Numbered from the stretch's first letter, positions 1-27,689 are shown. The stretch is DNA of 40,000 nucleotides from Marinobacterium rhizophilum (GCF_024397915.1 NZ_CP073347.1:2820058-2860057); one strand, 5' to 3'. Numbers and translations: made by a program. The notes: a model not told the origin generated them from the sequence alone.

Positions 1-30
1 GGGCGCCGTGTAACCCACCAGATGCTTCCC

Positions 31-142
31 GCACGTCCACCGCTCATGCACATCCCTGTATCCGCGGTATTAATGCATCCATGCACGTCCACCGCTCCTG
101 CACATCCCTGTGCTCGCGGTATTAGTGCATCCATGCACGTCA
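31..142. repeat. 52-bp tandem repeat: 2 full units (31-82, 83-134) plus a 7-nt partial unit, running into the stop codon of the ThDP-enzyme gene
   Basis: GCACGTCCACCGCTC recurs at 31, 83 and 135, giving a period of 52. The two full units differ at about 5 positions. The third start reads GCACG-TCA, and that TCA (140-142) is the TGA stop of the minus-strand gene. The array may continue left of the window. Confidence 0.85.
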
Positions 143-1783
143 ATACAGCTTCTTCTGTGGGGGGCCGGCGAAGTTGAGCGGGCCGACCCGGTGCATGTCG
201 ACTTCGATCACCGCCGGGCCCTCGATGGCGATGGCGTCCCGGATGGCGGAATCAAACTCTTCGACCGAGCCCACCTGCCAGCTCGGCATGCCCATTGCGG
301 TGCCGACATCCCGGTAGTTGGGGGTATGCAGTTCGTTGTAGTACTGCCGACCGTCGAAGTAGTTGTTCTGGATGCCGCGCATTACACCGTAGCCGCTGTC
401 GTTCATGACGATCAGCACCAGGTCGGTGTTTTCCTGCACCATGGTGGCCATTTCGCCGATGCCGAGCATCAGGCCGCCGTCACCCACCAGACCCACGACC
501 TTGCGGGTCGGGTTGGCAATGGCGCTGCCGATGGCGTGGGCCAGGCCCAGGCCGATGGCACCGGCCAGTGAGTGGATATTGCGGTTGGCCCCGTTAACCT
601 CGAATAGGCGGCTGCCCCAGGTGCTGCCGGACATGGTGATGTCCCGCACCAGGATGCCATCCTCGGGCAGAGCGTCACGCAGTGCGTTGCAGATACCGGC
701 ATAGTTGCCCACCTGGTCGCTCAGGGCCGCCACCGACTGCTCAACCACAGTCGCAATGGCGCGGTCATAGTCCGCATCGACCTTTTCAGCCTCGCCCAGG
801 GCATCGGCCAGGTACGCCAGCGCGACTTTGGCATCGGCGCAGATAAAACGGTCAGCACGGTAGTTGCGGTTCTGCGCCGCCGCGAAGGCATCAATCTGTA
901 CCAGCGGCTTGCCGAACTCCAGCGAGTAGGTCAGGGTCTCGTTGCTGCGCAGGCGCGAGCCCGCCACGATCACCAGGTCGCTGTCCTTGCACAGGTCCTT
1001 GAAGGACGCGCTGTTGTGAAAGGCCCGCAGGCTGCGCGGATGACTGTCCGGCAGGATGCCGCGACCGTGAGTGCTGGACACCACCGGCACCCCCTTGTCG
1101 GCCAGCGCCTTTACTTGCGCTTCACAGCCGGCGGCACCGCCACCGATCCACAGCAGCGGGCGTCTGGCGCTTTTCAGCTGCGCCGCCAGGCTTTCCAGCT
1201 CGGCGGATGCCGGCACCGGCAGCACGGCGGGCTCGATGGGGCCCAGATCCAGCGGCAGTTCGATGGTTGCGGCCTGTACATCGATGGGGATCTCGATGCT
1301 GACCGGGCCCATGGGGACGCTGCGGGCGACACGGATGGCTTCACGCACAATGCCGGCGGCACTTTCCGGATGGCTGATGCGGTACGCCGCCTTGCTGCTG
1401 GCCTTGAGGAAGGTCAGTTGGTCCCTGGCTTCATGGATAAAGCTGGCATCGCGGTCCAGGTATTCGCGCTCCACCTGGCCGGTAATATGCAGCACCGGGC
1501 TCGCGGCATTGCCAGCCTCAATCAGGGAGCCAATGGCATTGCCGGCGCCGGCGCCGGTGCTGGTCAGGGCCACGCCCAGACCTGCAAAGCGGGCATGGGC
1601 ATCGGCCATGGTGACGCAGCCGGCTTCGCCGCGGGCCGGCACAAAGGCGATCTCGCCGCGACGGCCAATGGCATCGGCCACCGGCAGGTTATGGATGGAA
1701 ATCACGCCGTAGACGTTGGCAACGCCATGGGCTTCTAGAATGCGGGCGACGACTTCGCCGACGGTAACTTGTTCAGACATCAT
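140..1783 (-). CDS. Thiamine-diphosphate-dependent enzyme (acetolactate synthase large subunit / benzoylformate decarboxylase family)
   Basis: The ORF is 549 aa. The N-terminal Pyr domain reads GVANVYGVISIHNLPVADA. The C-terminal PP domain has the ThDP motif GDGGLMLGIGEMATMVQENTDLVLIVMNDSGYG. The track ORF starts at GTG 1789; ATG codons at 1783 and 1780 follow an AGGTGA Shine-Dalgarno, so the exact start is uncertain by 1-3 codons. Confidence 0.88.
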   Translation of the reverse strand: MMSEQVTVGEVVARILEAHGVANVYGVISIHNLPVADAIGRRGEIAFVPARGEAGCVTMADAHARFAGLGVALTSTGAGAGNAIGSLIEAGNAASPVLHITGQVEREYLDRDASFIHEARDQLTFLKASSKAAYRISHPESAAGIVREAIRVARSVPMGPVSIEIPIDVQAATIELPLDLGPIEPAVLPVPASAELESLAAQLKSARRPLLWIGGGAAGCEAQVKALADKGVPVVSSTHGRGILPDSHPRSLRAFHNSASFKDLCKDSDLVIVAGSRLRSNETLTYSLEFGKPLVQIDAFAAAQNRNYRADRFICADAKVALAYLADALGEAEKVDADYDRAIATVVEQSVAALSDQVGNYAGICNALRDALPEDGILVRDITMSGSTWGSRLFEVNGANRNIHSLAGAIGLGLAHAIGSAIANPTRKVVGLVGDGGLMLGIGEMATMVQENTDLVLIVMNDSGYGVMRGIQNNYFDGRQYYNELHTPNYRDVGTAMGMPSWQVGSVEEFDSAIRDAIAIEGPAVIEVDMHRVGPLNFAGPPQKKLY

Positions 1784-1876
1784 ATTCACCTGTTCTTGTT
1801 CGTAGGAGCTGCGCCTCGCAGCGAATGCTCCCGTGCCAAATTTGTTCGCCGCGGGGGCGCGGCTCCTACGGAAATA

Positions 1877-3343
1877 TTATTCGGCCCAGGGGTTCGGCGT
1901 GTCGCTCAGCCCCAGATAGACGCTCTTCTGTTGCATGTACTCGAGCACGCCCAGGCGTCCCTTTTCGCGACCCAGACCGCTCTCCTTGAAGCCGCCAAAG
2001 GGCGCCGATATGGAGAATTTCTTGTAGGTGTTGATCCAGATGGTGCCGGCCTCCAGCTGGCGACCGATGCGCCAGGCACGGCGGAAATCCTCGCTCCAGA
2101 TGCCGGCCGCAAGACCGAAGACGCTGTTGTTGGCGCGGGCCAGCAGGTCAGCCTCGTCATCGAACTTCAGCACCACCAGCACCGGCCCGAATATCTCTTG
2201 CTGACAGACGCTGGCCCCGTTATCCAGCCCGGCAATGATGGTTGGCGGGTAGTAGCTGCCCTGGGCCATGTGCCCCTCGGCCAGGCGGGTACCGCCACAG
2301 AGGATTTCGCCGCCCTCGGCGCGGGCCTGGTCGACAAAACCGGCCACCGACGCCAGGTGCGCCTCGCTGATCAGCGGTCCCATATGGGTGCCGGGCTCCT
2401 CCGGATGACCGACCCGCAAGTTGGCGGTCAATTCCAGCAGGCGGCCCATGAAGCGGTCATACACCTTGGCATGCACAAACAGGCGCGAGCCGGCGATGCA
2501 GGCCTGGCCCGAGGAGCTGAAGATGCCGTAAACGACACCCCTGGCCGCCAGCTCGATATCCGCATCCTCGAACACGATGGTGGGTGACTTGCCACCCAGT
2601 TCCAGCGACGTCGGAATCAGCTTTTCAGCGGCGACATGGGCCAGGTGGCGCCCGGTGCCGGTGCCGCCGGTAAAGGAGATCTTGCGCACCAGCGGGTGGG
2701 CCGCCAGGGCCTCACCCACCACCGAACCCCGGCCCGGCAGTACACTGAGCAACCCCTTCGGCAGGCCGGCTTCCTCGAACAGTTCGGCCAGAGCCAGCGC
2801 CGCCAGGGGCGTGGCATCGGCGGGCTTGACGATCACCGCATTGCCTGCCGCCAGTGCCGGGGCGATTTTCTGCATTTCGCTGGCAATGGGCGAATTCCAG
2901 GGCGTGATAGCGGCAATAACGCCCAGCGGCTCATGCACGCTCAGGGTCATGAACTCGCTCGAGCGCTGCGCCGGCAGCTGCTCATCCAGGGTTTCGCAGG
3001 CGGCGGCAAAATAGCGCGCAGTAGCCGCGGCACTCATGACCAGGCCGCGGGTTTCGGCCAGTGGCTTGCCGTTGTCCCGGGTCTGCATGGAGGCCAGTTC
3101 ATCGACACGCTGGCTGATCAGGTCCGCCACGCGGTACAGCACCGCCGCCCGCTCGTGGGGCATGCGGTTGCGCCACTGCGGTTCGCGCCAGGCACGTTCC
3201 GCCGCCTGTACGGCCTCTTCCACATCCTCTGCACTGGCCGTGGCGATTTCGGCATTCAGGCTGCCATCGGCCGGAAAATAGGTCGCGCGCACCGGGCCGC
3301 CCCCCTGCTTCCACTGGCCGGCAATAAAGATAGGTTTGGTCAT
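1877..3343 (-). CDS. NAD(P)+-dependent aldehyde dehydrogenase
   Basis: ALDH family motifs are present: ELGGKSP and the catalytic-Cys region FSSSGQACIAGSR. I placed the start at internal ATG 3343 (MTKPIFIAGQW) because GAGGAGA lies 6 nt upstream. The 20 extra N-terminal codons of the track ORF have no RBS. Confidence 0.92.
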   Translation of the reverse strand: MTKPIFIAGQWKQGGGPVRATYFPADGSLNAEIATASAEDVEEAVQAAERAWREPQWRNRMPHERAAVLYRVADLISQRVDELASMQTRDNGKPLAETRGLVMSAAATARYFAAACETLDEQLPAQRSSEFMTLSVHEPLGVIAAITPWNSPIASEMQKIAPALAAGNAVIVKPADATPLAALALAELFEEAGLPKGLLSVLPGRGSVVGEALAAHPLVRKISFTGGTGTGRHLAHVAAEKLIPTSLELGGKSPTIVFEDADIELAARGVVYGIFSSSGQACIAGSRLFVHAKVYDRFMGRLLELTANLRVGHPEEPGTHMGPLISEAHLASVAGFVDQARAEGGEILCGGTRLAEGHMAQGSYYPPTIIAGLDNGASVCQQEIFGPVLVVLKFDDEADLLARANNSVFGLAAGIWSEDFRRAWRIGRQLEAGTIWINTYKKFSISAPFGGFKESGLGREKGRLGVLEYMQQKSVYLGLSDTPNPWAE

Positions 3344-3369
3344 GATTATTCTCCTCGAAGCCCAAGGCT

Positions 3370-4161
3370 TCAGATCAACAGGGACGCGGTGCTGTGCCGG
3401 CACGCCCGGACAACGCTCAGCGCCGCCAGGGTCGACGTCTTGGGATTGCTCGGCAGCGGCAGGCCGCTCAGCTCGAGCTTCATTTCACCGAAACGGCCGC
3501 GGGCGCAGATCAGGTGCTGGTTGCGCTCGATTCCGGGGTCCGCCATCAGCTCGACCCGGGTATCGTCCATGCCGACACCGGCCAGGGCGATGGTCGCCGC
3601 CACATTGGCATTGGCCGGGAACCGCAATGCCGCCTCCCGGGCCGTGCCGCGATAAAACACCGTGGCTTCGGTAATGCTGTCCAGGTCGATCAGGGTTTCG
3701 GCCGGGCTGCCTTTCCAGCTTTTCGGGCTCTTGCGCGCGCAGTACACCACCTCATCCAGCCCCCCTTCTTTCGCCGCCGCCAGGCCATCGATACCGGCGA
3801 TGGCACCGGCCAGCGCATGGATGCGGGCCCGGCCCGCCACCGCCGCGCTCTGCAGCCGGTCCAGCAGCGCATTGTCGGCAAAGGCACCGACCGAAATCAC
3901 GCCCAGGTCCCAGCCCCGTGCCAGCACTGCCTCGCCGTGCTGACGAATTGCGCCCTGGCCGGCACATTCAACCACCAGGTCCGGCGTGCCGTTGCAGGCT
4001 TCGATATCACTGATCACCTGGACACCGGCGGCCACCTGGCCGCGCGCCGCCGCAACGCTAGTTACCGGTACCAGCAGCCACTGCAGGCTGAGGTCTTCGG
4101 GCAGCAGGGCGAGCACTTCGCGGGCCATGGCGCCAAAACCGATCATCATTAACTGTTTCAT
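3370..4161 (-). CDS. Aspartate dehydrogenase domain protein (NadX-like)
   Basis: The protein is about 263 aa. It has an N-terminal Rossmann segment MMIGFGAMAREV, and the C-terminal part (ANANVAATIALAGVG...NPKTSTLAALSV) is typical of L-aspartate dehydrogenase. The start is ATG 4161, preceded by GAGGAAA. Confidence 0.8.
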   Translation of the reverse strand: MKQLMMIGFGAMAREVLALLPEDLSLQWLLVPVTSVAAARGQVAAGVQVISDIEACNGTPDLVVECAGQGAIRQHGEAVLARGWDLGVISVGAFADNALLDRLQSAAVAGRARIHALAGAIAGIDGLAAAKEGGLDEVVYCARKSPKSWKGSPAETLIDLDSITEATVFYRGTAREAALRFPANANVAATIALAGVGMDDTRVELMADPGIERNQHLICARGRFGEMKLELSGLPLPSNPKTSTLAALSVVRACRHSTASLLI

Positions 4162-4172
4162 GCAGGCTTTCC

Positions 4173-4967
4173 TCAAAGATGCCGGTTAAAGCCGCCGGAC
4201 ACATCCAGTGCCGCGCCGGTGGTGAAAGACGCCAGGGGCGATGCCAGGAACACCAGCGCACGGGCCGGCTCCTCGGGCTTGCCCAGGCGGCCCAACGGGA
4301 TGCCGCGCTTGGCGGCGATGGCGGCGATCCAGCTGTCCCAGTCCATGCTCTTGTCGCTGCGATCTTCGAAGCGACGGCGCCACTGGCCGGATTCCACCAT
4401 GCCCAGCAGGATGGAATTGACGCGGATGCCCCTGGCGGCAAATTCGTGGGACAGCGAGTGGCTCAGGTTCAGCAGGCCCGCCCGTGCCGCCGAGGTGGCG
4501 ATCATGTGGGGTTCGGGCTGCAACGCCAGCAACGAGTTGACGTTGGTAATGGAGGCGCAGTCCGAGGCTTCCAGCATGGGCTGGAAAGCCCTTACCGGGT
4601 TGATCACGCTGAACAGTTTCAGTTCAGCCTCGGCCAGCCAGTCCTCATCCGCCGTTTCGGCGAACGAACTGACACGGCCCTGGCCGGCATTGTTGATCAG
4701 GCAGTCGACGCCACCGAAAGCCTCCCGGACCTGGGCGGCAAAGGCCTCAACCTGGCCGCGGTCCAGCACATCGCAGCACAGCGACAGCATTTGACCCGCC
4801 GGAAAGGCTTCACGCATCAGGCGCTCGGACTCGGCCAGGCGCGCGGGATTGCGGCCGCACCAGGCGACTTTTGCACCTTCTGCCAGCAGCAGACGCACGG
4901 TTTCCAGACCGATGCCGGAGGAACCCCCGGTCACCACGGCAACCCTGGCTGTCAGGTTAAAGCTCAT
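4173..4967 (-). CDS. Short-chain dehydrogenase/reductase family protein, atypical active site
   Basis: It has TGGSSGIG, NNAG and the NVNS serine. The position 13 residues after that serine reads TSAAR instead of the canonical YxxxK. Confidence 0.85.
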   Translation of the reverse strand: MSFNLTARVAVVTGGSSGIGLETVRLLLAEGAKVAWCGRNPARLAESERLMREAFPAGQMLSLCCDVLDRGQVEAFAAQVREAFGGVDCLINNAGQGRVSSFAETADEDWLAEAELKLFSVINPVRAFQPMLEASDCASITNVNSLLALQPEPHMIATSAARAGLLNLSHSLSHEFAARGIRVNSILLGMVESGQWRRRFEDRSDKSMDWDSWIAAIAAKRGIPLGRLGKPEEPARALVFLASPLASFTTGAALDVSGGFNRHL

Positions 4968-5830: not shown

Positions 5831-5835
5831 CCTCT

Positions 5836-6357: not shown

Positions 6358-6436
6358 TTTCGTATCCTCTCGCTTATTTAAGGCAGCAGTAACCCCTGCC
6401 TGCCCGGTACCGGGCAGGCGAAACAGCATGCGGGGT

Positions 6437-7693: not shown

Positions 7694-7737
7694 ATTTTTC
7701 TACCCGTTTATTCTTGTGGGGTGCGCTAGCCGGCCTT

Positions 7738-9916: not shown

Positions 9917-10693
9917 TTAGTTGAAGACGAAGCCGCCATTGACCGGCAGCGTCTGACCGGTGACAAAACCCGCCAGATCCGACAGCAGATAAAGCACGCT
10001 GCCGCTGACATCTTCGGGCATCTGCTCGCGCTGAATCGCCCGGCCATTGATGTAGTGGTCGTGACGCTCCCTGGGTACGTAGGCCGTCGCTTCCACCAGG
10101 GTCAGCCCCGGGCAGATGCAGTTGACGCAGATATTGCGCTCACCCAGCTCCCGCGCCATGGATCGGCTCATGGAAATGACCGCACCCTTGCTGGCGACAT
10201 AGGCCATCAGCCGCGGTGCGCCCCAGAGCGCGGTATCCGATGCAATATTGACGATCCTGCCGGCACCCGATGCCGCCAGGTGGGGCACCATCGCCCGGCT
10301 CATCAGCCAGGTGCCGCGCACGTTCACGCTCATCACCCGGTCCCAGGTATCGATTTCCAGCTCGCACATGTCCGGGCCGCCGATGCCCGTGGCAATGGCA
10401 CCGCAGTTGACCAGGCCATCCACCGCTCCGAGGGTTTGCGCGCTGAATGCCGCCACCGCCTCGACGGACGCGGGGTCTGCCAGGTCCAGCTTCACGGCAA
10501 CGGCCTCGAAACCCTGCTCCGCCAGCGCGGCCGCCTCCTGCGCCACCAGCTCGTCGAGAATATCCGCCATCACCACCCGGGCACCGGCGGCGCAGGCGGC
10601 CTGGGCAAAGTCCAGCCCCAGCCCGCGGGCGGCACCGGTAATCAGCAGGCGCTTGCCCGCCAGCAGCGGCTTGGCAACGCGCGGGCTAGTCAT
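9917..10693 (-). CDS. Short-chain dehydrogenase/reductase (cis-diol dehydrogenase-like)
   Basis: It has TGAARGLG and the canonical S...YVASK catalytic motif. Its start overlaps the oxygenase stop by 8 nt. Confidence 0.88.
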   Translation of the reverse strand: MTSPRVAKPLLAGKRLLITGAARGLGLDFAQAACAAGARVVMADILDELVAQEAAALAEQGFEAVAVKLDLADPASVEAVAAFSAQTLGAVDGLVNCGAIATGIGGPDMCELEIDTWDRVMSVNVRGTWLMSRAMVPHLAASGAGRIVNIASDTALWGAPRLMAYVASKGAVISMSRSMARELGERNICVNCICPGLTLVEATAYVPRERHDHYINGRAIQREQMPEDVSGSVLYLLSDLAGFVTGQTLPVNGGFVFN

Positions 10694-11726
10694 GGGTGGC
10701 CTCTTTCGGCTGTGCCGCGGCTTCGATCCGGGCCAGCTGTTTCTGGGCCAGTTTTTTCATCAGCCGACGCAGCCGCGACAGGCCCACATCGTGCTGGTAA
10801 AGGAACTCGTGATCGCGGGCAGCCGGCGCCATCTGCTCGAGAATGACCTGGTCCTGCAGCAGTACATCCCAGTGCAGTTTTTCCAGCCGGTTGCGGTAGA
10901 GAAAACGCCAGGTGTCGCGCTGCCAGCCCTGCACCTTGCGGGCACGCCAGAAGAACACGCGGGTGTTGTGTTCATCGATCGGCGTGGCCTGGCCTACGAT
11001 CCAGAACTCGCCGCCGGGGCCGAACTTCTGCTGATAGGGAATCGACAGGCGCAACCAGAAGGTGCCGCTGTCGCCGAACTCGACCCAGTCGAAGTTGACG
11101 CCGCTCTGGCCAACCTTCTCGAACCGGAAGCCGTGCTCGGTATCGACAATGCGCATGTCGGCGCTGCGCTCGCCCTCGGCCATGGAGTGGGACGTGCAGT
11201 GCAGGTAGCTGCCGTGCATCGGGTCCATCACATTGTCGATGGCATAACGGTGGTTGCAGGCCCAGTCGGCACTGCAGAGGAAGCTGCTCCACTGCTCGCT
11301 TTCGAGCTGCTCCGGCAGTACCAGGTCATCGGGAGCCGCCTCGGCCTCTAGGCCGAACCAGACGAAGACGGCACCGTGCTTTTCGATAACCGGGTAGGAA
11401 CGCACGCACTTGCTGCCGCTCATGGGGCAGTTGCTGACGGCCGGCACATCGGCCACTTCGCCGTCGCCTTTTACCTCGACGCCGTGATACCAGCAGGCCA
11501 CGCGGTCACCCAGGTTCCAACCCAGGGACAGGCGCGCACCACGGTGCGGACAGCGATCTTCCAGCGCATGCACCTGGCCATCGCGGTCACGCCACAGCAC
11601 GATATTGTCCCCCAGGCGGGTAATGCCCACCGGACTGGTGGCCACTTCCCAGCTGGCCACCACGGGATACCAGCGGTCGCGCAGCCCAAGATCCAGATAG
11701 TTTTCGATTGTTTGCTTGTCGTTCAC
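10686..11726 (-). CDS. Rieske [2Fe-2S] non-haem-iron oxygenase, alpha subunit (alpha-only type)
   Basis: The Rieske motif is CPHRGARLSLG...CWYHG and the mononuclear-iron motif is NVMDPMHGSYLH. I placed the start at GTG 11726 (VNDKQTIENY), 13 nt after the stop of the upstream 99-aa gene and preceded by GGGGG. The longer track ORF would overlap that gene. Confidence 0.88.
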   Translation of the reverse strand: MNDKQTIENYLDLGLRDRWYPVVASWEVATSPVGITRLGDNIVLWRDRDGQVHALEDRCPHRGARLSLGWNLGDRVACWYHGVEVKGDGEVADVPAVSNCPMSGSKCVRSYPVIEKHGAVFVWFGLEAEAAPDDLVLPEQLESEQWSSFLCSADWACNHRYAIDNVMDPMHGSYLHCTSHSMAEGERSADMRIVDTEHGFRFEKVGQSGVNFDWVEFGDSGTFWLRLSIPYQQKFGPGGEFWIVGQATPIDEHNTRVFFWRARKVQGWQRDTWRFLYRNRLEKLHWDVLLQDQVILEQMAPAARDHEFLYQHDVGLSRLRRLMKKLAQKQLARIEAAAQPKEATHD

Positions 11727-12438: not shown

Positions 12439-12889
12439 CCCCGCAGAATTCACAGGGGTATGTCATGAAAAGCCTCTGAAAAACACCGAGAATGACTGCA
12501 AAAAATGAATAAAAACAAAAATTAAGCAATTTTTACATGACCCTTAAACCTGGAATCAAAGGGACTCCGAGCCCCCGGAACTCAAAAAAAACATAAAATG
12601 GCAGCGGAAAAATGCACCGGAACTTGGATAAAGCGATAGTTCAAATATGATCAAGTAGCGCGCACGGCAATGCTCGCCTCAACCGCCGGGCGATATGCAG
12701 ACAGGAGAAAAGCCAGCCAGATGGCGACTGTACGCAGGGGCGTTACAGCAAAAACGACAGGAACAGTAACCAGGGAAGTACAACAGGCCAGGCAGGGGTG
12801 CATACAGGCCGCCGGGATCGACAGGATGGGCGACTATCCCGGGCAATTCCGGGCAATCCCGGCGATTTCAGCAAGCGCTATGAAAGCGA

Positions 12890-13080
12890 TCAGAACTGGG
12901 ACGAATGCAGCCCCAGGGTGCGGGACAGGTCTTTGGAGGCCTTGACCACCTCCTCTCGGATGCGGCCGTCGAACGCGTCACGGGACAGGCTTCCCAGCGG
13001 GCAACTTACGCAGCTCGTGTCCACAAAGGCGCAGCGACAATACGCCCAGCTGTTTCAGGAGCTCCAGGCTCAGCACCTAA
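12890..13080 (-). pseudogene. Silent copy A of the iclR 3' end
   Basis: It keeps the TGA stop and the frame for about 39 codons. It differs from the live end at about 4 positions in the first 120 nt; beyond that it is decayed with indels. Confidence 0.85.
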
Positions 13081-13168
13081 GCCGGGATTGGCAGGATGGG
13101 CGACTATCCCGGGCAATCCGGGCAATTCCGGGCAATCCGGACTATTTCAGCAAGCGTTATGAAAGCGA

Positions 13169-13359
13169 TCAGAACTGGGACGAATGCAGCCCCAGGGTGC
13201 GGGACAGCTCTTTGGAGGCCTTGACCACTTCCTCACGGATGCGGCCGTCGAACTCGTCACGGGACAGGCTTCCCAGCGGGCAACTTACGCAGCTCGTGTC
13301 CACAAAGGCGCAGCGACAATACGCCCAGCTGTTTCAGGAGCTCCAGGCTCAGCACCTAA
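13169..13359 (-). pseudogene. Silent copy B of the iclR 3' end
   Basis: As for copy A. There are 4 differences from the live end in 120 nt: one D-to-E change and three synonymous changes. Confidence 0.85.
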
Positions 13360-13447
13360 GCCGGGATTGGCAGGATGGGCGACTATCCCGGGCAATCCGG
13401 GCAATTCCGGGCAATCCGGACTATTTCAGCAAGCGTTATGAAAGCGA

Positions 13448-13638
13448 TCAGAACTGGGACGAATGCAGCCCCAGGGTGCGGGACAGCTCTTTGGAGGCCT
13501 TGACCACTTCCTCACGGATGCGGCCGTCGAACTCGTCACGGGAGAGGCTTCCCGGCGGGCAACTTACGCAGCTCGTGTCCACAAAGGCGCAGCGACAATA
13601 CGCCCAGCTGTTTCAGGAGCTCCAGGCTCAGCACCTAA
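13448..13638 (-). pseudogene. Silent copy C of the iclR 3' end
   Basis: As for copy A. It carries a private L-to-P change (CTG to CCG). Confidence 0.85.
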
Positions 13639-13706
13639 GCCGGGATTGACAGGATGGGCGACCATCCCGGGCAACCCCGGGCAATCCGGACTATTTCAGA
13701 AAGCGA

Positions 13707-14495
13707 TCAGAACTGGGACGAATGCAGCCCCAGGGTGCGGGACAGGTCTTTGGAGGCCTTGACCACCTCCTCACGGATGCGGCCGTCGAACTCGTCACGG
13801 GAGAGGCTTCCCAGCGGGCAACTCACGGAAACCGCAGCCACAATACGCCGGTCATCCACGCTCAGTACCGGTGCCACACAGGCTGCCATGCCGGGATTGA
13901 AGTGCCCCCAGGCAATCGCGGCATCCTTGCCACGGTAACTGCGCACCCGCTCGAGCAAGGCCTCGGGCGTGGCCGGAGTGGTTTCGGTAAAACGCTCGAA
14001 GCCGTAATCCTGGTACAGCTCCAGGATGGCATCATCCGACAGCGTGGACAGCATGAGCTGACCGGTCACGGTAGCATGGGCCGGCCAGCGTGTGCCCACC
14101 GATACGGTACTGGTGAAGGGGCCGGTGGCCTGGAAGCATTCGACAATTACCGTGTTGTGGCCATCGCGAATCAGCAGCTGACTGGCCAGGGTTGTCTGGT
14201 TGCGCAGGTGCTCCAGTATCGGCCGCGAAGGCTCCAGCAACTCCAGGCTGGAGAGGTACTGGAAACCCAGATCCAGGATGCGGGAACTCAGGGTATAGCG
14301 GTTGCTGTCACCGACACGGCGCAGAAAGCCGCAGTTTTCCAGGGTGTACACCAGGCGGAAGGTACTGGAACGGTTCACCCCGATCGCCTCGGCCAGTTCG
14401 GATATCGATTGTTCCCGCTTGTGCTTGCTGAACTGCTGCAACACAGCCAGCCCCCGCACCAGGCCCGGGACTATATAACGGTCATCTGTTTCCAT
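13707..14495 (-). CDS. IclR-family transcriptional regulator
   Basis: It has an N-terminal winged HTH (VPGLVRGLAVLQQF...ISELAEAIGVNRSSTFRLVYTLENCGFL) and a C-terminal IclR effector domain. The start is taken at ATG 14495 (METDDRY); the 41 upstream codons of the track ORF are not IclR-like. Confidence 0.9.
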   Translation of the reverse strand: METDDRYIVPGLVRGLAVLQQFSKHKREQSISELAEAIGVNRSSTFRLVYTLENCGFLRRVGDSNRYTLSSRILDLGFQYLSSLELLEPSRPILEHLRNQTTLASQLLIRDGHNTVIVECFQATGPFTSTVSVGTRWPAHATVTGQLMLSTLSDDAILELYQDYGFERFTETTPATPEALLERVRSYRGKDAAIAWGHFNPGMAACVAPVLSVDDRRIVAAVSVSCPLGSLSRDEFDGRIREEVVKASKDLSRTLGLHSSQF

Positions 14496-15004
14496 GATCT
14501 GCCTGTACCCACTGCGAACACTGCCAAAACGACCTGCGATTGGATCATGCGCCCCTGGAGCTGTCAATTGAAGCCGCCGGTACGCCGCACGGCCTGGTGT
14601 CACCGGAAACGCCCTCAATTTTTTACCTATTGGAAAAATAATCTTGCCTGCCCGGTTCCCAGGTTATATATTGACCAGAAGGTAAAACAACAACAATAAC
14701 AGCAGACAGGTCCTGCCCGTGCTTCAGCTTGCAGGCAGCCAGGTACCGGATCTGCAGAAGACGGAGACAGGATCGTGATCAGAACCTCATACCGCACCAC
14801 GCCCTCGCTGCCCGGCAGCTTCCACTGCGCCACCACCACTCGAACTCCTGCCCCACCGGGCTTCGTGTCCTGAAGATACACCGGGGCTGCCCTATCGGCG
14901 ACCCTGACTCAAAGCGTTCCCCCTAGCGATCTCCGACAGATACCCGGCTGCCTGGCAGTGCCCGGCGGTAACGGGATCATTAATAACAAGAAAGAGGATG
15001 CATC

Positions 15005-19444: not shown

Positions 19445-19456
19445 ATCCTCTGATCC

Positions 19457-19490
19457 CGCCCGGCAACCCCTGGTAGCCGGGCGTTTTCGT
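19457..19490 (+). terminator. Rho-independent terminator of the 18890-19444 gene
   Basis: There is a perfect 8-bp stem, CGCCCGGC (19457-19464) / GCCGGGCG (19476-19483), with an 11-nt loop, followed by TTTTCGT. Confidence 0.7.
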
Positions 19491-19800
19491 CCCCGCCCTT
19501 ACCGAAAAACAGCAAGCGGCTGAAGAAGGCACAAGACAAGGGCCGGCTTGCGCCGCCATCAGCCCCATTAGTGCCATCAGCACTACGAAAGATCACTGCA
19601 ATGCTGCCCCTGCCCCTGCCCGCCAGTATCCTGGTAGCCCTGATTTTTAGCCCCCGCTTTTACCGAAAACAGCAAGCGATTGAGGAAGGTACATGACAAG
19701 GGTCGGCTTGCGCCGCCATCAGCCCCATTACTTCCGTACGCACTACGAAAGACCGCTGCAGTACTGCCGCTGCCCGCCAGTATCCTGGTAGCCCTGATTT
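19486..19800. repeat. Two degenerate tandem copies (161 and 154 bp) of the 3' end plus flank of the cox subunit-IV-like gene
   Basis: TTAGCCCCCGtCTTTTcCGAAAA (live, 19801) aligns with TTAGCCCCCGCTTTTACCGAAAA (19647) and TTCGTCCCCGCCCTTACCGAAAA (19486). The shared motifs CGCCATCAGCCCCAT and CCCGCCAGTATCCTGGTAGCCCTGATTT recur with the same spacing. Confidence 0.8.
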
Positions 19801-20139
19801 TTAGCCCCCGTCTTTTCCGAAAAATAATAGGCGACTGAGGAAGACGTAATCAGCTTCAACCGCCATCAGCCCCATCAGTACCAGCAGGCACAGGGGGGGA
19901 ACCAGGATGGCATACACAATGGCCAGCCTTTCCCACGCCATGTGCATGAAAATCGACACGATCAGGCCGGCCTTGAGCAGCATGAAAATAAGAATCAGGG
20001 CCCAGCGCAACGGGCCCTCGAAATGAAAATAGTCCACCAGGTAAGACAGGGTACTGAGGATAAACAGCAACCCCCATATTTTCAGATAGAGGCTCACGGG
20101 ATGCTGCTGCCCCTGTTTAATCTCGTGCATAGATTCCAT
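19801..20139 (-). CDS. Small haem-copper oxidase subunit (bacterial cytochrome oxidase subunit IV-like, 3 TM)
   Basis: The protein is 112 aa from ATG 20139 (MESMHEIKQG), 11 nt after the subunit III stop. It has three hydrophobic helices and lies last in the oxidase cluster. Confidence 0.7.
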   Translation of the reverse strand: MESMHEIKQGQQHPVSLYLKIWGLLFILSTLSYLVDYFHFEGPLRWALILIFMLLKAGLIVSIFMHMAWERLAIVYAILVPPLCLLVLMGLMAVEADYVFLSRLLFFGKDGG

Positions 20140-20149
20140 TGCCGGCACC

Positions 20150-20860: not shown

Positions 20861-20864
20861 ATCA

Positions 20865-21539: not shown

Positions 21540-23302
21540 GGGGCGACCTCCGGCTCGCGGCGACGGGGCAGCGCGGCCAGATCCTGCTCCGACAGGGTCT
21601 GGGGCACGTAATCCTGCTCCAGCCCGGGCATGCTGTAATCATAGGCCCAGCGGTGCACCACCGGCAGCTTCGGCCCCCAGTTGCCATGGGCCGGCGGCGT
21701 CTGCGGGGTCTGCCACTCGAGACTGGTGGCCTTCCAGGGATTGGGACCCGACGGTGGCCCGCGAAAGGCGCTCCAGGCCAGGTTGCCGAGAAACAGCAGC
21801 TGGCTCACGCCGACAATCAGCGCCGCCACCGTGATAAAGGCATTCAGGTCCTGCGCCGAGGGGGGAATAAAGTCGTACCCCTCGAAGGCGTAATAGCGGC
21901 GCGGCACGCCCAGAAAACCCAGGTAGTGCATGGGAAAGTAGATGGCATAGGTGCCCAGGAAGGTGATCCAGAAATGCAGCTGACCGACGGTATCGTTCAG
22001 CATCCGGCCAGTGACCTTCGGGAACCAGTGGTAAATGGCCCCGAAGACCACCAGTATCGGCGCTACCCCCATGACCATGTGGAAATGCGCCACCACGAAG
22101 TAGGTATCCGACAGCGGGATATCGACGATCACGTTGCCAAGAAAGAGCCCGGTCAGCCCGCCCACCAGGAAGGTCAGGATAAACGCCAGCGCGAACAGCA
22201 TCGGCACCCGCAGATGGATGTCGCCCCGCCAGAGCGTCAGCACCCAGTTGTATACCTTGAGCGCCGTGGGTACCGCGATAATCAGGGTGGTGGTGGCAAA
22301 GAAAAAACCGAATTTCGGATTCATGCCGCTGACATACATATGGTGCGCCCAAACCACAAAACTCAGCACGCCGATGGCCACTATCGCCCACACCATCATG
22401 CGGTAGCCAAAGATATTCTTGCGGGCATGGGTGCTGATCAGGTCCGACACCAGGCCAAAGGCCGGCAGCGCGACTATATAGACTTCCGGATGGCCGAAAA
22501 ACCAGAACAGGTGCTGGAACAGTATGGGACTGCCGCCTTCGTGATCCAGCGCTTGCCCCATGGACATCATCGCCGGCATAAAGAAGCTGGTACCCAGCAG
22601 GCGGTCACACAGCATCATGATGGCGCTGACAAAGAGCGCCGGGAAAGCCAGCAGCGCCAGCACCGTTGCCATGAAGATGCCCCAGACGGTCAGCGGCATG
22701 CGAAACAGCGTCATGCCGTAGGTGCGCGCCTGCAGCACCGTGGTGACATAGTTCAGCCCCCCCATGGTGGCGGCGACGATGAAGATCGCCAGCGATACCA
22801 GCATCAGCACGATGCCCCAGTCCGCCCCGGGGGTGCCGCGGGTGATGGACTGGGGCGGATACAGCGTCCAGCCGGCGCCCGTGGGGCCACCGGGCACGAA
22901 GAAACTGGCCAGCAGCACCAGCACCGACAGCAGGAAAAACCAGTAACTCAGCATGTTGAGATAGGGAAACACCATGTCCCGAGCGCCCACCATCAGCGGG
23001 ATCAGGTAGTTGCCGAAACCGCCGAGGAACAGCGCGGTCAGCAGGTAGATCACCATGATCATGCCGTGCATGGTCATGGCCTGGTAATAGGCCGCGGGGT
23101 CCATGAACTCGAGGCTGCCGGGAAAGCCGATCTGCATGCGCATCAGCCCGGACAGCACCAGGCCCACCAGGCCGACAAAGATGGCCGTCAGGCCATACTG
23201 AACAGCGATAACCTTGTGATCCTGGCTCCAGATATAACGGGTCAGGAAACTGCGCGGTACATGCACAGGATCCCGTTCCGCCTGTTCTGCATAGGCCATC
23301 AT
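21536..23302 (-). CDS. Cytochrome c oxidase subunit I
   Basis: Canonical motifs are present: WFFGHPEVYI, the HHMY region (WAHHMYVSG) and VAHFHMVMG. The start is taken at ATG 23302/23299 (MMAYAEQ) after GAGGAGG; the track ORF adds 34 codons that overlap the subunit II 3' end. Confidence 0.93.
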   Translation of the reverse strand: MMAYAEQAERDPVHVPRSFLTRYIWSQDHKVIAVQYGLTAIFVGLVGLVLSGLMRMQIGFPGSLEFMDPAAYYQAMTMHGMIMVIYLLTALFLGGFGNYLIPLMVGARDMVFPYLNMLSYWFFLLSVLVLLASFFVPGGPTGAGWTLYPPQSITRGTPGADWGIVLMLVSLAIFIVAATMGGLNYVTTVLQARTYGMTLFRMPLTVWGIFMATVLALLAFPALFVSAIMMLCDRLLGTSFFMPAMMSMGQALDHEGGSPILFQHLFWFFGHPEVYIVALPAFGLVSDLISTHARKNIFGYRMMVWAIVAIGVLSFVVWAHHMYVSGMNPKFGFFFATTTLIIAVPTALKVYNWVLTLWRGDIHLRVPMLFALAFILTFLVGGLTGLFLGNVIVDIPLSDTYFVVAHFHMVMGVAPILVVFGAIYHWFPKVTGRMLNDTVGQLHFWITFLGTYAIYFPMHYLGFLGVPRRYYAFEGYDFIPPSAQDLNAFITVAALIVGVSQLLFLGNLAWSAFRGPPSGPNPWKATSLEWQTPQTPPAHGNWGPKLPVVHRWAYDYSMPGLEQDYVPQTLSEQDLAALPRRREPEVAP

Positions 23303-23342
23303 GTCCTCCTCGGCCGCAGCGCCGCCCGGGCGCCGGCCACTC

Positions 23343-24767
23343 TCAGGGTGCGCCCTTGTCTGCCAGGGCTGCGATAAAGGCGCCCAGAGCCTGTAACTGG
23401 GCATCGTTCAGGCTGTAGGCCGGCATCACGGACGCATAGCCCTTCACCGTCTGAGCCGCCGGGCTGACAATCGATTCCCGTACATAGGCATCGTCAACCT
23501 GAACCTCGCGGCCATCCATCAGGGTCTCGGTAGCGCCGTAAAGTCCTTTCCAGCTGGGGCCAACACCCGGGCTGCCATCGAGGCTGTGGCAGGCCAGGCA
23601 TCCCAGGGTTTCGGCCAGCTGCTGTCCGTCCGACACCCGCTGCTCCTGCGCGGCATCAGTGGCCTCGGGCCCCAGCGAGCGAATCAGTGCAACCAGCGCC
23701 TCCAGGTCGGCATCCGCCAGCGCATAGGGCACCATGACCGCCGCATAGCCCTGTACCATACGGGCACCGGGCTGCAGGATGGATTCCTTCAGATAGTCCT
23801 CATCGACGCGAACCTGGCTGCCATCGGCCAGGGTCTCCAGGCTGCCATATAGCCCCAGCCAGCCGGGCCCCAGACTCTTGCTGCCATCCAGGCTGTGACA
23901 GGCAACACAGCCATGCTGCTGGGCCAGCGCACGACCGCGCTCCACCTCAGGATCAAGGCCCGAGCGCTGCGCCGACGCCTCCTGCGTCTGTGCGAAGGTA
24001 GGCTGCTGTCCCAGCCACTGCTCGAAGGCCTCGGGCGCTTCGACGATCATTCGTCCGCGCATGTTGTAGTGACCCAGGCCGCAGAACTCGGCACAGAGGA
24101 TTTCATAGGAGCCCGTCACCATGGGGGTAAACCAGAAATAGGACACCAGGCCCGGCACCATATCCATCTTGCTGCGAATCTGCGGAATGTAGAAGTTGTG
24201 CAGCACATCGTTTGAACGCTGCAGCACCTTGACTGGCAGGCCCACCGGCAAGCGCACCTCGTTACCCCGCACGATAACGTCATCCTGACCGCTGGCGTCC
24301 TCGGGGTTCAGCCCCAGCGGGTTGGCGGCGCTGATCCACTCCACGCTCGAGGTGCCCAGCCGACCGTCGGCGCCGGGCAGGCGAAATGCCCATTGCCACT
24401 GCTGGCCCACGACCTCGAGTTCATAGGCATTGTCGGGCACCCGGACAAAATCGTTATAGACCACCAGGCCCGGCGCCAGCAGCCCCGCGATGGCCACAGT
24501 GGTCACGCCAATCAGCCACCATTCCAGGGGTTTGTTTTCCGGCTCGTACTGGGCCCTGAGACCCTTGCGGTGACGAAAGCGAATGAGGGCCAGGGCCATG
24601 AACAGGGTAATGGCGACGAAGAATACGCCGGTGATCAGCAGGGTAAGAAACAGGGTATCGTCAATCGAGCCCCAGTTTGAAGCCGCTTCGGTCGCACGCC
24701 AGGGATTGAACAGATGAAACAGAACTGACGCGATAACGATAAAGATAAAAACGATTGCCAATGCCAT
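23343..24767 (-). CDS. Cytochrome c oxidase subunit II fused to two c-type cytochrome domains
   Basis: There are two N-terminal TM helices, the CuA motif CAEFCGLGHYNM, and then two CxxCH haem-binding sites (CVACH and CLACH). Confidence 0.92.
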   Translation of the reverse strand: MALAIVFIFIVIASVLFHLFNPWRATEAASNWGSIDDTLFLTLLITGVFFVAITLFMALALIRFRHRKGLRAQYEPENKPLEWWLIGVTTVAIAGLLAPGLVVYNDFVRVPDNAYELEVVGQQWQWAFRLPGADGRLGTSSVEWISAANPLGLNPEDASGQDDVIVRGNEVRLPVGLPVKVLQRSNDVLHNFYIPQIRSKMDMVPGLVSYFWFTPMVTGSYEILCAEFCGLGHYNMRGRMIVEAPEAFEQWLGQQPTFAQTQEASAQRSGLDPEVERGRALAQQHGCVACHSLDGSKSLGPGWLGLYGSLETLADGSQVRVDEDYLKESILQPGARMVQGYAAVMVPYALADADLEALVALIRSLGPEATDAAQEQRVSDGQQLAETLGCLACHSLDGSPGVGPSWKGLYGATETLMDGREVQVDDAYVRESIVSPAAQTVKGYASVMPAYSLNDAQLQALGAFIAALADKGAP

Positions 24768-25209
24768 CGATAATCACCCTCGCCCGCCGCCACGCTGACA
24801 GCCTGCTGCAGTCGCCTGCGACAGGCTCGGCACGGCGACCAGCACAGTTGCGCGAGTCGGCCGACCTGAGATGGCATCGGGGCGCGACAGCCGGACGGCA
24901 CCCGAATGGAAACGACACAGGATTGCGCTCAACAGGACCCGGCCAAACCTCTAAAAGCGTAGTGCTGAAGGCAAAAATATGCGAACCCGGCCGCGACGCC
25001 GGTCCGCGATCACAGGCCCGCTCGCCTCTCCCGGACTGTGCATAAGCTGTGGCCAGTTATACAGACGCGATCTTCGAAACAACCCGGCGGCCCGATTTGC
25101 CCACCGCACACTCAAAAATCATGCAGCTTCACAGGAAGCCTGATTTACGGGACCTCTAGCAAAGTACGCGGAGCTTATCCCCAGACTGACCACAGCCTTG
25201 TACAGCCAT

Positions 25210-25254
25210 TCTGTGTGTAACATTCGCGTATCGGAGACACCATTTACACACAGA
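25210..25254. promoter_or_regulatory. Perfect 11-bp inverted repeat with a 23-nt spacer
   Basis: The arms are TCTGTGTGTAA (25210-25220) and TTACACACAGA (25244-25254). It lies in a non-coding region about 450 nt upstream of the oxidase subunit II start. Confidence 0.35.
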
Positions 25255-25404
25255 GACTTATACACAGCGGGAAAAGACGGCCCGGAACAGCAGGGCCAAT
25301 GCCAAGGATCAGCCCTGCGCAAACCGCGCCCACGGCAGAACGTACATCCTGTATAGACCGCTCCTGCGCATCCATGCGCCCGCGGCATACCGTTGTGCCC
25401 TTGC

Positions 25405-25500
25405 TCACACCGTCTCGTTGACCGCCTTTGTCAGTTCCATGATGGCCTTCTTGCCATCACTGAAGCGCATCAGGCAGTTGTCCAGGGCAAAGAACGGCCA
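25405..25500 (-). pseudogene. Silent copy 1 of the pntB 3' end (most diverged)
   Basis: It has a TGA stop and the frame is kept. It carries four private non-synonymous changes (T-to-K, G-to-S, R-to-L, L-to-F). Confidence 0.85.
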
Positions 25501-25572
25501 ATTGTGGATAGCGCAGGCCCGAACCGCACGGCCAGGGACGACCCACCAGGCGGCAGACCGTCGTTCCCTTGC

Positions 25573-25668
25573 TCACACCGTTTCGTTGACCGCCGTTGTC
25601 AGTTCCATGATGGCCTTCTTGCCATCGCCAAACAGCATCAGGCAGCTGTCCCTGGCAAAGAGCGTCCT
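25573..25668 (-). pseudogene. Silent copy 2 of the pntB 3' end
   Basis: It has a TGA stop. Its differences from the live end are mostly synonymous (GTG, GAA, TTT, CTG), plus one N-to-S change. Confidence 0.85.
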
Positions 25669-25740
25669 GTTGTGGATAGCGCAGGCCCGAACTGCACGGC
25701 CAGGGACGGCCCACCAGGCGGCAGACCGTCGTTCCCTTGC

Positions 25741-25836
25741 TCACACCGTTTCGTTGACCGCCGTTGTCAGTTCCATGATGGCCTTCTTGCCATCACCGAA
25801 GAGCATCAGGCAGTTGTCCCGGGCAAAGAGCGTCCT
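25741..25836 (-). pseudogene. Silent copy 3 of the pntB 3' end
   Basis: It has a TGA stop and encodes LFARDNCLMLFGDGKKAIMELTTAVNETV, identical to the live C-terminus. It is embedded in the ATG-initiated 62-codon track ORF 25741..25929. Confidence 0.85.
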
Positions 25837-25962
25837 GTTGTGGATAGCGCAGGCCCGAACCGCACGGCCAGGGACGGCCCACCAGGCGGCAGCCCGTACA
25901 TCCTGTATAGACCGCTCCTGCGCATCCATGCGCCCGCGGCATACCGTACATCCTGTACATAC

Positions 25963-26058
25963 CTAAACCGTTTCGTTGACCGCCGTTGTCAGCTCCATGA
26001 TGGCCTTCTTGCCATCACCGAAGAGCATCAGGCAGCTGTCCCTGGCGAAGAGCGGCCA
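25963..26058 (-). pseudogene. Silent copy 4 of the pntB 3' end (TAG type)
   Basis: It shares the TAG stop and the GTT and GAG codon states with the live gene. Like the live gene, it is directly preceded by the ~50-nt X element. Confidence 0.85.
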
Positions 26059-26130
26059 ATTGTGGATAGCGCAGGCCCGAACTGCACGGCCAGGGACGGC
26101 CCACCAGGCGGCAGACCGTCGTTCCCTTGC

Positions 26131-26226
26131 TCACACCGTTTCGTTGACCGCCGTTGTCAGTTCCATGATGGCCTTCTTGCCATCGCCGAAGCGCATCAGG
26201 CAGTTGTCCCGGGCAAAGAGCGCCCT
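26131..26226 (-). pseudogene. Silent copy 5 of the pntB 3' end
   Basis: It has a TGA stop, three synonymous differences and one L-to-R change. Confidence 0.85.
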
Positions 26227-26294
26227 GTTGTGGATAGCGCAGGCCCGAACTGCGCATCCATGCGCCCGCGGCATACCGTACATCCTGTACATAC

Positions 26295-27689
26295 CTAAAC
26301 CGTTTCGTTGACCGCCGTTGTCAGCTCCATGATGGCCTTCTTGCCATCGCCGAAGAGCATCAGGCAGTTGTCCCTGGCAAAGAGCGGGTTGGGCAGGCCC
26401 GCAAAGCCCGGGCTCAGGCTGCGCTTGACCACCACCACGGTACGCGCCTTGTCGACGTTCAGGATCGGCATGCCGTAGATCGGGCTGCCCTTGTCTTCCC
26501 GCGCCATGGGATTGGTGACATCGTTGGCGCCGATCACAATGGCCACGTCCGTCTGTTCGAACAGCGCATTGACCTCCTCCATCGGCTGCATCTTGTCGTA
26601 GGCGACCTCGGCTTCGGCCAGCAGCACGTTCATGTGGCCGGGCATGCGCCCCGCCACCGGATGCAGGCCATAGATCACCTCGATGCCGCGCCGCTCCAGC
26701 GAGTCGGCCAGGTCGCGCACCGCGTGCTGCGCCTGGGCCATGGCCAGGCCAAAGCCCGGCACGATCACCACGCGGCGGGCGCTCTCGAGCAGCATGCCCA
26801 CTTCCTCCGGCGAGGACGACTTCACCTTGCCGGCATAGACCTCATCGGCATCCATCACGGCCCCACCGGCCTCGGCAGCCGAACCAAAGAGTACCGCGGT
26901 GAGGGAACGGTTCATGGCCACGCACATGATGCGGGTGAGGATAATGCCCGACGCCCCCACCAGGGCACCGGACACCACCAGCACGCTGTTACCCATGATG
27001 AACCCCGCCGCCGCCGCCGCCAGCCCCGAGTAGGAATTCAGCAGGGCTATCACCACCGGCATGTCAGCACCACCAATGGGCATGACCAGGGTTACCCCCA
27101 GCACCAGGGCCAGCACTGTGAGCAATACCAGGGTGCTGCTGTCACCGCTGCCGCTGATAAGTGAGCCCGCCAGTGCCAGCACGGCGGCAAAGAGCGCCAG
27201 GTTCAGGCCGCCCATGCCCCGGAAACCCAGCGGCCGACCCGGCAGCAGTTCCTGCAGCTTGGCAAAGGCCACCGCACTGCCGCTGAGGGTAACCGCGCCA
27301 ATCAGCAGCGTCAGGCAGATGGCCACCAGTGCCACCAGCCCCTGGGGGCCTGCGGTCGCGGTCTGGCCCAGAAAACTGGCCGCCGCCACGCAGAGCGATG
27401 CACCGCCACCAAAGCCGTTGAGCAGCGCCACCATCTGCGGCATCGCCGTCATCTGGATGCGGATCGCCAGCACCGTGCCGACCAGCGACCCCAGCACCAC
27501 GCCACCGAGTATCCATTCATAGGACAGGATCGACCGATCCAGCAGGGTCACCACCACCGCCACCAGCATGCCGATAGCCGCCATCTGGTTGCCACGCACC
27601 GCGGTACGCGGCCGGGTCAGGCCCTTGATGCCACCGACGAACAGCATGGCCGCCAGCAGGTAAAAACCATCAACCAGCAACAGATTCAT
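26295..27689 (-). CDS. pntB: NAD(P) transhydrogenase subunit beta
   Basis: The protein is 464 aa, with a membrane domain followed by a dIII NADP(H) domain (VIIVPGFGLAMAQAQH...GANDVTNP...VVVKRS). It lies in pntAA-pntAB-pntB order. Confidence 0.95.
   Translation of the reverse strand: MNLLLVDGFYLLAAMLFVGGIKGLTRPRTAVRGNQMAAIGMLVAVVVTLLDRSILSYEWILGGVVLGSLVGTVLAIRIQMTAMPQMVALLNGFGGGASLCVAAASFLGQTATAGPQGLVALVAICLTLLIGAVTLSGSAVAFAKLQELLPGRPLGFRGMGGLNLALFAAVLALAGSLISGSGDSSTLVLLTVLALVLGVTLVMPIGGADMPVVIALLNSYSGLAAAAAGFIMGNSVLVVSGALVGASGIILTRIMCVAMNRSLTAVLFGSAAEAGGAVMDADEVYAGKVKSSSPEEVGMLLESARRVVIVPGFGLAMAQAQHAVRDLADSLERRGIEVIYGLHPVAGRMPGHMNVLLAEAEVAYDKMQPMEEVNALFEQTDVAIVIGANDVTNPMAREDKGSPIYGMPILNVDKARTVVVVKRSLSPGFAGLPNPLFARDNCLMLFGDGKKAIMELTTAVNETV

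Follow-up and report, generated by a model that had tools for sequence, protein, structure and literature searches.

A 40,000-nucleotide (nt) stretch of the Marinobacterium rhizophilum genome (GCF_024397915.1, NZ_CP073347.1:2820058-2860057; hereafter ‘the window’, with positions counted from its first letter) carries four long-period tandem arrays at the 3′ ends of genes, namely those for a thiamine diphosphate (ThDP)-dependent enzyme, an IclR-family regulator (iclR), a cytochrome oxidase subunit IV-like protein (cox4), and PntB. Judging from their sequences, these arrays probably represent independent, recent tandem duplications within the M. rhizophilum lineage, generated by slipped misalignment and subsequently expanded by unequal crossing-over. 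They are most likely a fresh instance of a familiar type of event rather than a new genetic system. The same region also houses copies of a dispersed two-hairpin element with GGA-containing loops (the GGA-loop element), which is undescribed and constitutes the more novel item of the region.

Arrays were detected in the assembled sequence of the window by combining Tandem Repeats Finder (TRF) with an independent repeat search and a low-stringency rescan. All four fell within the first 26.4 kb: the ThDP repeat (positions 31-141; 52 nt, 2.1 copies, 91% matches), the iclR repeat (12839-13827; 279 nt, 3.6 copies, 95% matches), the cox4 repeat (19469-19823; 160 nt, 2.3 copies, 84% matches), and the pntB repeat (25382-26386; 168 nt, about six units, reported in two TRF rows). 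The repeat search returned the same families in the same registers. Units are arranged head-to-tail with constant periods of 52, 279, 154-160, and 164-168 nt, respectively, apart from one 222 nt-long pntB unit that carries an insertion. A search for direct repeats of at least 28 nt within 1.5 kb yielded no further plausible arrays in the window. Pfam agrees with the gene calls of an initial annotation—made from the sequence alone—for the ThDP enzyme, IclR, COX4_pro, and PntB, all of which are encoded on the minus strand. That annotation had ascribed one and the same structure to the arrays at iclR, pntB, and cox4, as is borne out by both alignments and TRF: the terminal ~95-190 nt of the gene together with the stop codon and 35-150 nt of flanking sequence form the repeated unit, which is reiterated immediately 3′ of the live gene. 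Its further statement that no array spans a gene start held for the entire window upon low-stringency rescanning.

To place the arrays in an evolutionary context, we inspected the corresponding loci in relatives. The pntB locus was compared with those of M. profundum (L001; 94% amino acid identity), a metagenome contig (L006; 96%), and L007; the iclR and cox4 loci with L002 (IclR 94% identical), L003 (78%), and L005 from M. aestuariivivens; and the ThDP locus with L131 (94%) and L132 (90%). All four array loci were single-copy in every relative examined, at protein identities of 78-96% where given. When sixteen Marinobacterium loci, amounting to 160,458 nt, were scanned for direct repeats of at least 60 nt within 800 nt, no gene-end array was found; the sole match was an array of the GGA-loop element. 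Three gene-end arrays in 40 kb as compared to none in 160,458 nt correspond to P = (0.2)^3 = 0.008 under an even spread—a rough value, because the sample of relatives is not random and n is small—in keeping with the earlier suggestion that chance is an improbable source of the arrays. Independently of the arrays, the L005 assembly has both COX3 and iclR broken into two open reading frames (ORFs) apiece (1-1010 and 10001-10788), probably reflecting frameshift errors or pseudogenes and not arrays.

The iclR gene (13707-14495, minus strand; Pfam HTH_IclR and IclR_C) encodes a protein of 262 amino acids (aa), the same length as its homologues. Its array (12839-13843, minus strand) starts with the live terminal segment (core 13699-13843) and continues with three 279-nt units, whose cores were located by repeat alignments at 13440-13584, 13161-13305, and 12882-13026 (minus strand). 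Each unit consists of ~190 nt of gene-derived sequence, the stop codon, and ~90 nt of flank including a (ATTGCCCGG)n stretch, and the units are frameshifted by a 14-nt insertion. The junction maps to an 8-10 nt microhomology, CAATCCCGGC, common to flank and gene; a CCGGGAT...ATCCCGG hairpin (-14 to -15 kcal/mol, z about -2) has its 3′ base at this point. A terminator-like hairpin (12714-12730, minus strand) is located downstream of the array. The gene-derived part is collinear with the ancestral locus; the flank evolves too fast to be aligned with relatives. Ancestral bases, as present in L002, are retained in the live copy and in the most distal unit, and derived single-nucleotide polymorphisms (SNPs) are common to the two inner units, a pattern typical of arrays that have grown by unequal exchange.

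At pntB (26295-27689, minus strand; Pfam PNTB; 464 aa, 100% identical to M. rhizophilum PntB; TAG stop at 26295-26297), the array (25360-26387, minus strand) comprises the live terminal segment and five units of 164-222 nt, each composed of ~95 nt of gene end, the stop codon, and ~70 nt of flank. At the junction, flank sequence ending in ...GGCGCT is joined to the gene sequence CTTTGCC..., where the ancestral flank read ...GGCGCTGTCTCC; the microhomology spans 4-5 nt, CGCT(C/G)T. The flank in units U2, U4, and U5 has its homologue in M. profundum, where this flank is single-copy. Patchy similarity at the unit boundary was considered as diverged gene sequence and this interpretation was discarded, as the M. 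profundum comparison identified the stretch as ancestral flank. The live unit measures 164 nt, being cut at a GCAG microhomology, and another unit reaches 222 nt through the insertion mentioned above. Between pntB and COX2, the spacer of the window (1528 nt) exceeds that of L006 (672 nt) by ~5 x 168 nt. Beyond the array lies a predicted terminator-like hairpin (25125-25140, minus strand).

The covariance model of the GGA-loop element (described below) also matched within the pntB array, with all matches on the minus strand: directly 3′ of the live pntB stop (26242-26293; 28.4 bits), where the element is truncated at the GCAG microhomology; after the stop of U3, in 1.5 units (25910-25961; 54.3 bits); and as an insertion in the flank belonging to U6, the distal unit (25356-25399; 44.8 bits). 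The element was not found in the pntB flanks of the relatives. In L006, a different hairpin element (GGTTTCCTGAAAACGGYTCCTGYGTTTTCAGGAT) occurs twice in the pntB 3′ flank (3225-3350), and a hairpin similar to it, CAGAAAA..GCTCCTGC..TTTTCTG, precedes the GGA-loop element in L020 and L030. By sequence, the L006, L020, and L030 hairpins may form a related element family.

The cox4 gene (19801-20139, minus strand; Pfam PF03626, COX4_pro), whose C-terminus was aligned with the L002 and L003 orthologues, is followed by an array (19469-19887, minus strand) consisting of the live 3′ end and two decayed units of ~154-160 nt. These units are 80-84% alike and contain a frameshifting 8-nt insertion. The distal unit keeps the ancestral flank adjoining the stop codon of the convergent gene, just as in L002. 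A 12-bp terminator hairpin (19457-19483, no strand assigned) is formed by an inverted repeat between the convergent genes, with a DNA fold of -15.5 kcal/mol (z = -3.8); its equivalent is kept in L002, and the distal breakpoint of the cox4 duplication coincides with its apex. In relatives, the spacer between cox4 and the convergent gene harbors a 15-nt tandem repeat, CCGGTGGAACGCCAC (4.6 copies in L003, 3645-3713; 2.3 copies in L005, 1454-1487). As these repeats occur where M. rhizophilum has its 160-nt array, the spacer appears to be repeat-prone in several lineages.

The ThDP repeat differs in content. The gene (140-1783, minus strand; Pfam TPP_enzyme_N/M/C) encodes 547 aa when read from the first ATG and ends with a TGA stop codon at 140-142; given that homologues comprise 544-547 aa, the C-terminus is of normal length. 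The repeat (31-141, minus strand) is a 52-nt, 2.1-fold duplication of the two-hairpin GGA-loop element, with copies at 90-141 and 38-89 and covariance-model scores of 73.9 and 60.5 bits. The unit begins at the GA of the TGA stop codon, resulting in a 2-nt overlap without gene-derived sequence, and the 7-nt direct repeat GACGTGC is found at both ends of the unit. Both L131 and L132 possess one copy of the element at exactly the same site, likewise starting at the GA of the TGA stop, with compensatory changes in hairpin B and a terminator ~200 nt further downstream. This single copy at the same place in both relatives implies that the element at the ThDP stop codon is ancestral and resides in the 3′ untranslated region (UTR). 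M. rhizophilum has thus duplicated a pre-existing element, which makes a fourth lineage-specific tandem duplication. The initial annotation had grouped this repeat with the other three arrays, which stands with regard to the process—lineage-specific tandem duplication—but not with regard to content, as gene-derived sequence is missing.

Plus-strand ORFs of 283 and 301 aa run across the arrays. They reach no Pfam whole-protein cut-off except for one marginal, repeat-driven P22_Tail-4 score without a significant stretch, and were rejected as genes, being spurious by-products of in-frame periods. Two of the periods (279 and 168 nt) are divisible by three; that of cox4 is not.

Several lines of evidence converge on microhomology-mediated duplication followed by unequal crossing-over, the option that the initial annotation had listed first. 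The arrays are absent from relatives, and their units, built from local sequence alone, line up with the ancestral locus in its single-copy state (pntB with M. profundum and L006; cox4 with L002 and L003; ThDP with L131 and L132). The novel junctions at iclR, pntB, and ThDP bear microhomologies of 4-10 nt, and the SNPs of the inner iclR units have the distribution described above. For the classes of mechanism by microhomology length, we rely on a bioRxiv preprint (10.64898/2026.05.22.727201).

From these observations we infer a slippage or template-switch mechanism. Initially, a nascent strand or broken end would re-anneal at a short direct repeat of 4-10 nt, giving rise to the first duplication; the two repeats would lie 50-250 nt apart, the downstream one in the 3′ flank and the upstream one inside the gene in three cases and overlapping the stop codon in that of ThDP. 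The resulting two copies would then serve as a substrate for unequal crossing-over or slippage, allowing growth to up to ~6 units and homogenization of the inner ones. In the pntB array, small microhomology deletions and insertion of the hairpin element would have brought about further remodeling. Each event is expected to be near neutral because the upstream gene is left intact and merely dead copies of its end are added 3′ of it; these copies would sit in a 3′ untranslated stretch, as the nearest terminator-like sites lie further downstream.

As to why gene ends should be affected, we infer a contribution of flank hairpins, of survivorship, or of both. In two of the three gene-end arrays (cox4 and iclR), the distal breakpoint lies in or beside a stable inverted repeat. 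Hairpins can stall synthesis and are concentrated in 3′ flanks, so that stalling there would bias duplications toward gene ends. In addition, duplications that span a gene’s 5′ end or are intragenic would more likely be harmful and hence lost. In a rough count over spacer types, the two duplications in co-oriented spacers are both on the 3′ side, another one arose in a convergent spacer of ancestrally ~41 nt, and a divergent spacer of ~510 nt (14496-15004) is devoid of an array. This suggests a real 3′ bias, on a post hoc count with n = 3.

Some observations weigh against this interpretation. Both the proposed propensity across the genome and the 3′ bias are drawn from four events in the 40 kb examined, and nothing in the window accounts for more frequent duplication in the M. 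rhizophilum lineage than in its relatives. The pntB breakpoint has a weak ancestral hairpin (z = -1.1), and the cox4 junction is too decayed for its microhomology to be defined. Decay is also uneven. In the iclR units, the 3′ part and flank stay 92-97% identical to the live copy, while the gene-internal 5′ part (13568-13650 and its equivalents in each unit) is heavily diverged and contains indels; in cox4, the gene-internal 5′ part (19620-19700) is far more diverged from the live gene than the 3′ part, again with indels. Such 5′ divergence, with indels of 8-17 nt, is at odds with uniform neutral decay. Either the founding event was complex, or the live gene has preserved the similarity of the 3′ part through gene conversion. 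A search for nearby templates of the inserted stretches in the diverged iclR 5′ part returned only chance 11-mers.

Among the competing explanations, footprints of small site-specific integrative elements that insert at gene 3′ ends and bring a replacement end with them would turn the repeated ends into attL/attR-type duplicates. A gene end duplicated 3′ of the live gene is indeed what integration into a 3′ end leaves behind, and the ThDP and pntB stop codons are both occupied by a small dispersed element. However, the units are wholly local, and the repeated gene ends enclose no foreign DNA; the three arrays have no common core, and their junctions are differing short microhomologies. The gene order from pntB to the Rieske operon is as in relatives, and Pfam scanning of ten ORFs next to the arrays, covering part of the window, revealed no integrase, transposase, or reverse transcriptase (RT) domain, consistent with the initial annotation, which had recognized none. 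We regard integrative footprints as highly unlikely and, as far as the sequences tell, the dispersed hairpin element did not create the gene-end arrays; what survives of this second option of the initial annotation is the small hairpin element at the ThDP and pntB stops. The same lack of an RT domain in the ten scanned ORFs also speaks against retro-duplication, in which complementary DNA of mRNA 3′ ends would be re-inserted beside the gene by an RT encoded elsewhere, akin to a retron or a diversity-generating retroelement (DGR). The units do correspond to the 3′ part of a transcript, and a copy of the 3′ end near the gene recalls the template repeat/variable repeat pairs of DGRs, in which a second copy of the gene 3′ end is situated close to the gene. 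Yet, the units terminate within the flank, at a microhomology or a hairpin that precedes the terminator-like sites, rather than where an RNA 3′ end would fall; the substitutions that distinguish the copies are of mixed type (T/C, C/G, G/A, A/C) and not confined to adenines, as opposed to those of DGRs; and multiple head-to-tail copies with homogenized inner units fit unequal crossing-over. Retro-duplication hence ranks as extremely improbable.

A functional role of the arrays, either as a store of alternative C-termini that are swapped through recombination or as a stack of 3′ UTR, terminator, or insulator modules in front of the following operon, would agree with two arrays lying between a gene and the next co-oriented operon, with the two periods that are multiples of three (279 and 168 nt), and with the probable transcription of the units, which lie upstream of the nearest terminator-like hairpins. 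On the other hand, the cox4 period is not divisible by three, only 0-2 conservative residues distinguish the encoded C-termini, insertions of 14 and 8 nt shift the reading frame of the iclR and cox4 units, respectively, no promoter- or terminator-like site is present within the units, and the plus-strand ORFs across the arrays have no real family match. The arrays are, moreover, missing in relatives at 94-96% protein identity, which marks them as young and not conserved. This third option of the initial annotation is not supported, and we deem it quite unlikely. Lastly, mis-expansion of repeats in a long-read assembly could explain why the pntB and iclR junction sequences found no match in metagenomes, but the copies differ by 2-20% in a structured manner (shared derived SNPs, unit-specific indels, and the element in some units only), patterns not invented by assemblers, and the spacers differ from those of relatives by whole numbers of units. 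An artefact of this kind is scarcely credible.

The proposed tandem duplications can be set alongside known repeat systems. They resemble minisatellites, or variable-number tandem repeats, arising through slipped misalignment, in their constant period, microhomology, single-copy ancestor, homogenized inner units, and hairpin-adjacent breakpoints; here, in contrast, four events cluster in 26 kb, all at gene 3′ ends. Mycobacterial interspersed repetitive units (MIRUs) are tandem intergenic units of 40 to more than 100 nt that overlap stop codons, vary in copy number between strains, and belong to one dispersed sequence family. The M. rhizophilum arrays share with MIRUs the placement of tandem units between genes and over stop codons, but each array unit derives from its own gene end and flank, except for the ThDP repeat, which is built from a dispersed element. 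Orphan C-terminal cassettes of rhs/cdiA and silent cassettes of the pilS type are likewise promoterless copies of a gene 3′ end that follow the live gene in a stack, but the tips they encode are divergent (and accompanied by immunity genes), and they serve in switching. The copies described here, in contrast, come from housekeeping genes, are either near-identical or frameshifted, and do not occur in close relatives. We know of no described case of clustered 3′-end tandem duplication as a lineage trait, and literature searches by sequence string, organism, and phenomenon retrieved no earlier description of such a phenomenon.

We turn to the GGA-loop element, the unit of the ThDP repeat. It spans ~51-52 nt. 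In gene sense, hairpin A, which has a variable stem and a loop of the form (N)GGA, is separated by a short linker from hairpin B, GCCGC-GG-GCGCA-NGGA-TGCGC-AGGA-GCGGC. Each unit holds three GGA motifs (ACAGGAUGU, CAUGGAUG, and GCAGGAGC), two of the AGGA/AGGGA type and one AUGGA. A covariance model of the element collected 135 copies in 100 sources. Among these 135 matches, 95.3% of cells were paired, as compared to 83.5% in shuffles and 10-42% in slid controls, and double-sided changes occurred in 11 of 15 pairs; because the alignment was fitted to the model, these figures are tilted in favor of the structure. Scanning for the element pattern returned at least 120 loci (L011-L130) in many gammaproteobacterial orders and in Mariprofundus; M. 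aestuariivivens has at least four loci and M. ramblicola at least three. Elsewhere, the element usually starts just past the terminator T-run or the stop codon of a co-oriented upstream gene, with rpoS, efp, rplI, lysS, and an aldehyde dehydrogenase gene among these upstream neighbors. Tandem clusters were present in L059 (4514-4754), L074 (4863-5220), L076 (1429-1582), and L041. The largest array sampled, in M. ramblicola (L059, 4487-4763), comprises five identical 51-nt units between rpoS and fdxA, co-oriented with rpoS. Rfam returned no match for the window at gathering thresholds and none for the 52-nt element at permissive thresholds either, and a literature search found no papers containing the element sequence.

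The loop motifs ACAGGAUGU and CAUGGAUG resemble CsrA/RsmA ligands, judging in part by the published gene criteria considered below. With the Csr/Rsm small RNAs (sRNAs) CsrB and RsmZ, the element shares GGA in covarying hairpin loops, an occurrence in tandem copies, and the placement between rpoS and fdxA: Pseudomonas rsmZ has the same position and orientation as the M. ramblicola array (PMC1488887, Table 1). Five criteria for Csr-type sRNA genes were taken from the same study (PMC1488887). The element is intergenic with dense AGGA/ARGGA motifs, and its GGA sequences lie in the loops of predicted hairpins, both in agreement with a Csr-type sRNA. It departs from such sRNAs in one, and perhaps two, of the five respects. 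No rho-independent terminator of its own follows the element arrays in L059 or L074; terminators precede the element instead. As to a conserved GacA/UvrY-type site and a separate promoter upstream, no recognizable site was seen, though no systematic box search was made, and the upstream stop or terminator is only 0-47 nt away from the element. The element equally resembles repetitive extragenic palindromic (REP) sequences and bacterial interspersed mosaic elements in being extragenic, palindromic, dispersed, present several times per genome, often clustered, and co-oriented with the upstream gene; unlike typical REPs, one sequence family spans many orders. From its sequence features, the element may be either a CsrA/RsmA-binding module or a REP-like element.

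If the element belongs to an RNA class, this class may be modular, built of two covarying hairpins with three GGA motifs, located in 3′ UTRs or past terminators, and prone to tandem expansion. A more far-reaching proposal would combine both findings: a hairpin-triggered, lineage-specific reiteration of 3′ ends that acts genome-wide and has produced hundreds of arrays, linked to a 52-nt unit belonging to an undescribed and widely distributed class of RNAs that titrate or recruit CsrA/RsmA, the latter being the more novel of the two. We put this joint reading forward tentatively, and consider it rather unlikely to hold in full.

Other short repeats in the window and its relatives were noted in passing. 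A heptamer array upstream of pntAA (29448-29504) consists of eight CTTTCAC copies (GTGAAAG in gene sense), and the region upstream of pntAA in M. profundum (L001, 8074-8183) contains a 28-mer/7-mer array including GGTGAAAGG. The presence of such arrays in both species points to conservation of a GTGAAAG-like repeated motif in the pntA leader or promoter region. A second heptamer array, AGGGGCA in 13 copies (37736-37831), lies in the spacer that follows, on its downstream side, a minus-strand ORF of 378 aa (36452-37588).

The clustering of the arrays and their 3′ bias deserve a genome-wide scan. At a practical level, such arrays mislead gene callers by creating long spurious ORFs and break short-read assemblies. 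Should the clustering reflect a trait of the whole genome, M. rhizophilum would offer a natural system to study why some lineages make short tandem duplications fast, and whether terminator hairpins steer duplications to 3′ ends. Terminator-guided duplication bears, in turn, on the origin of C-terminal extensions and new 3′ UTRs. As to the GGA-loop element, if it does represent an RNA class, the rpoS-fdxA array of M. ramblicola would be the functional counterpart of RsmZ. Since its features are those of CsrA/RsmA ligands, the element is a candidate for the missing Csr-type decoys of Oceanospirillales and other Gammaproteobacteria, and may possibly matter more than the arrays themselves.

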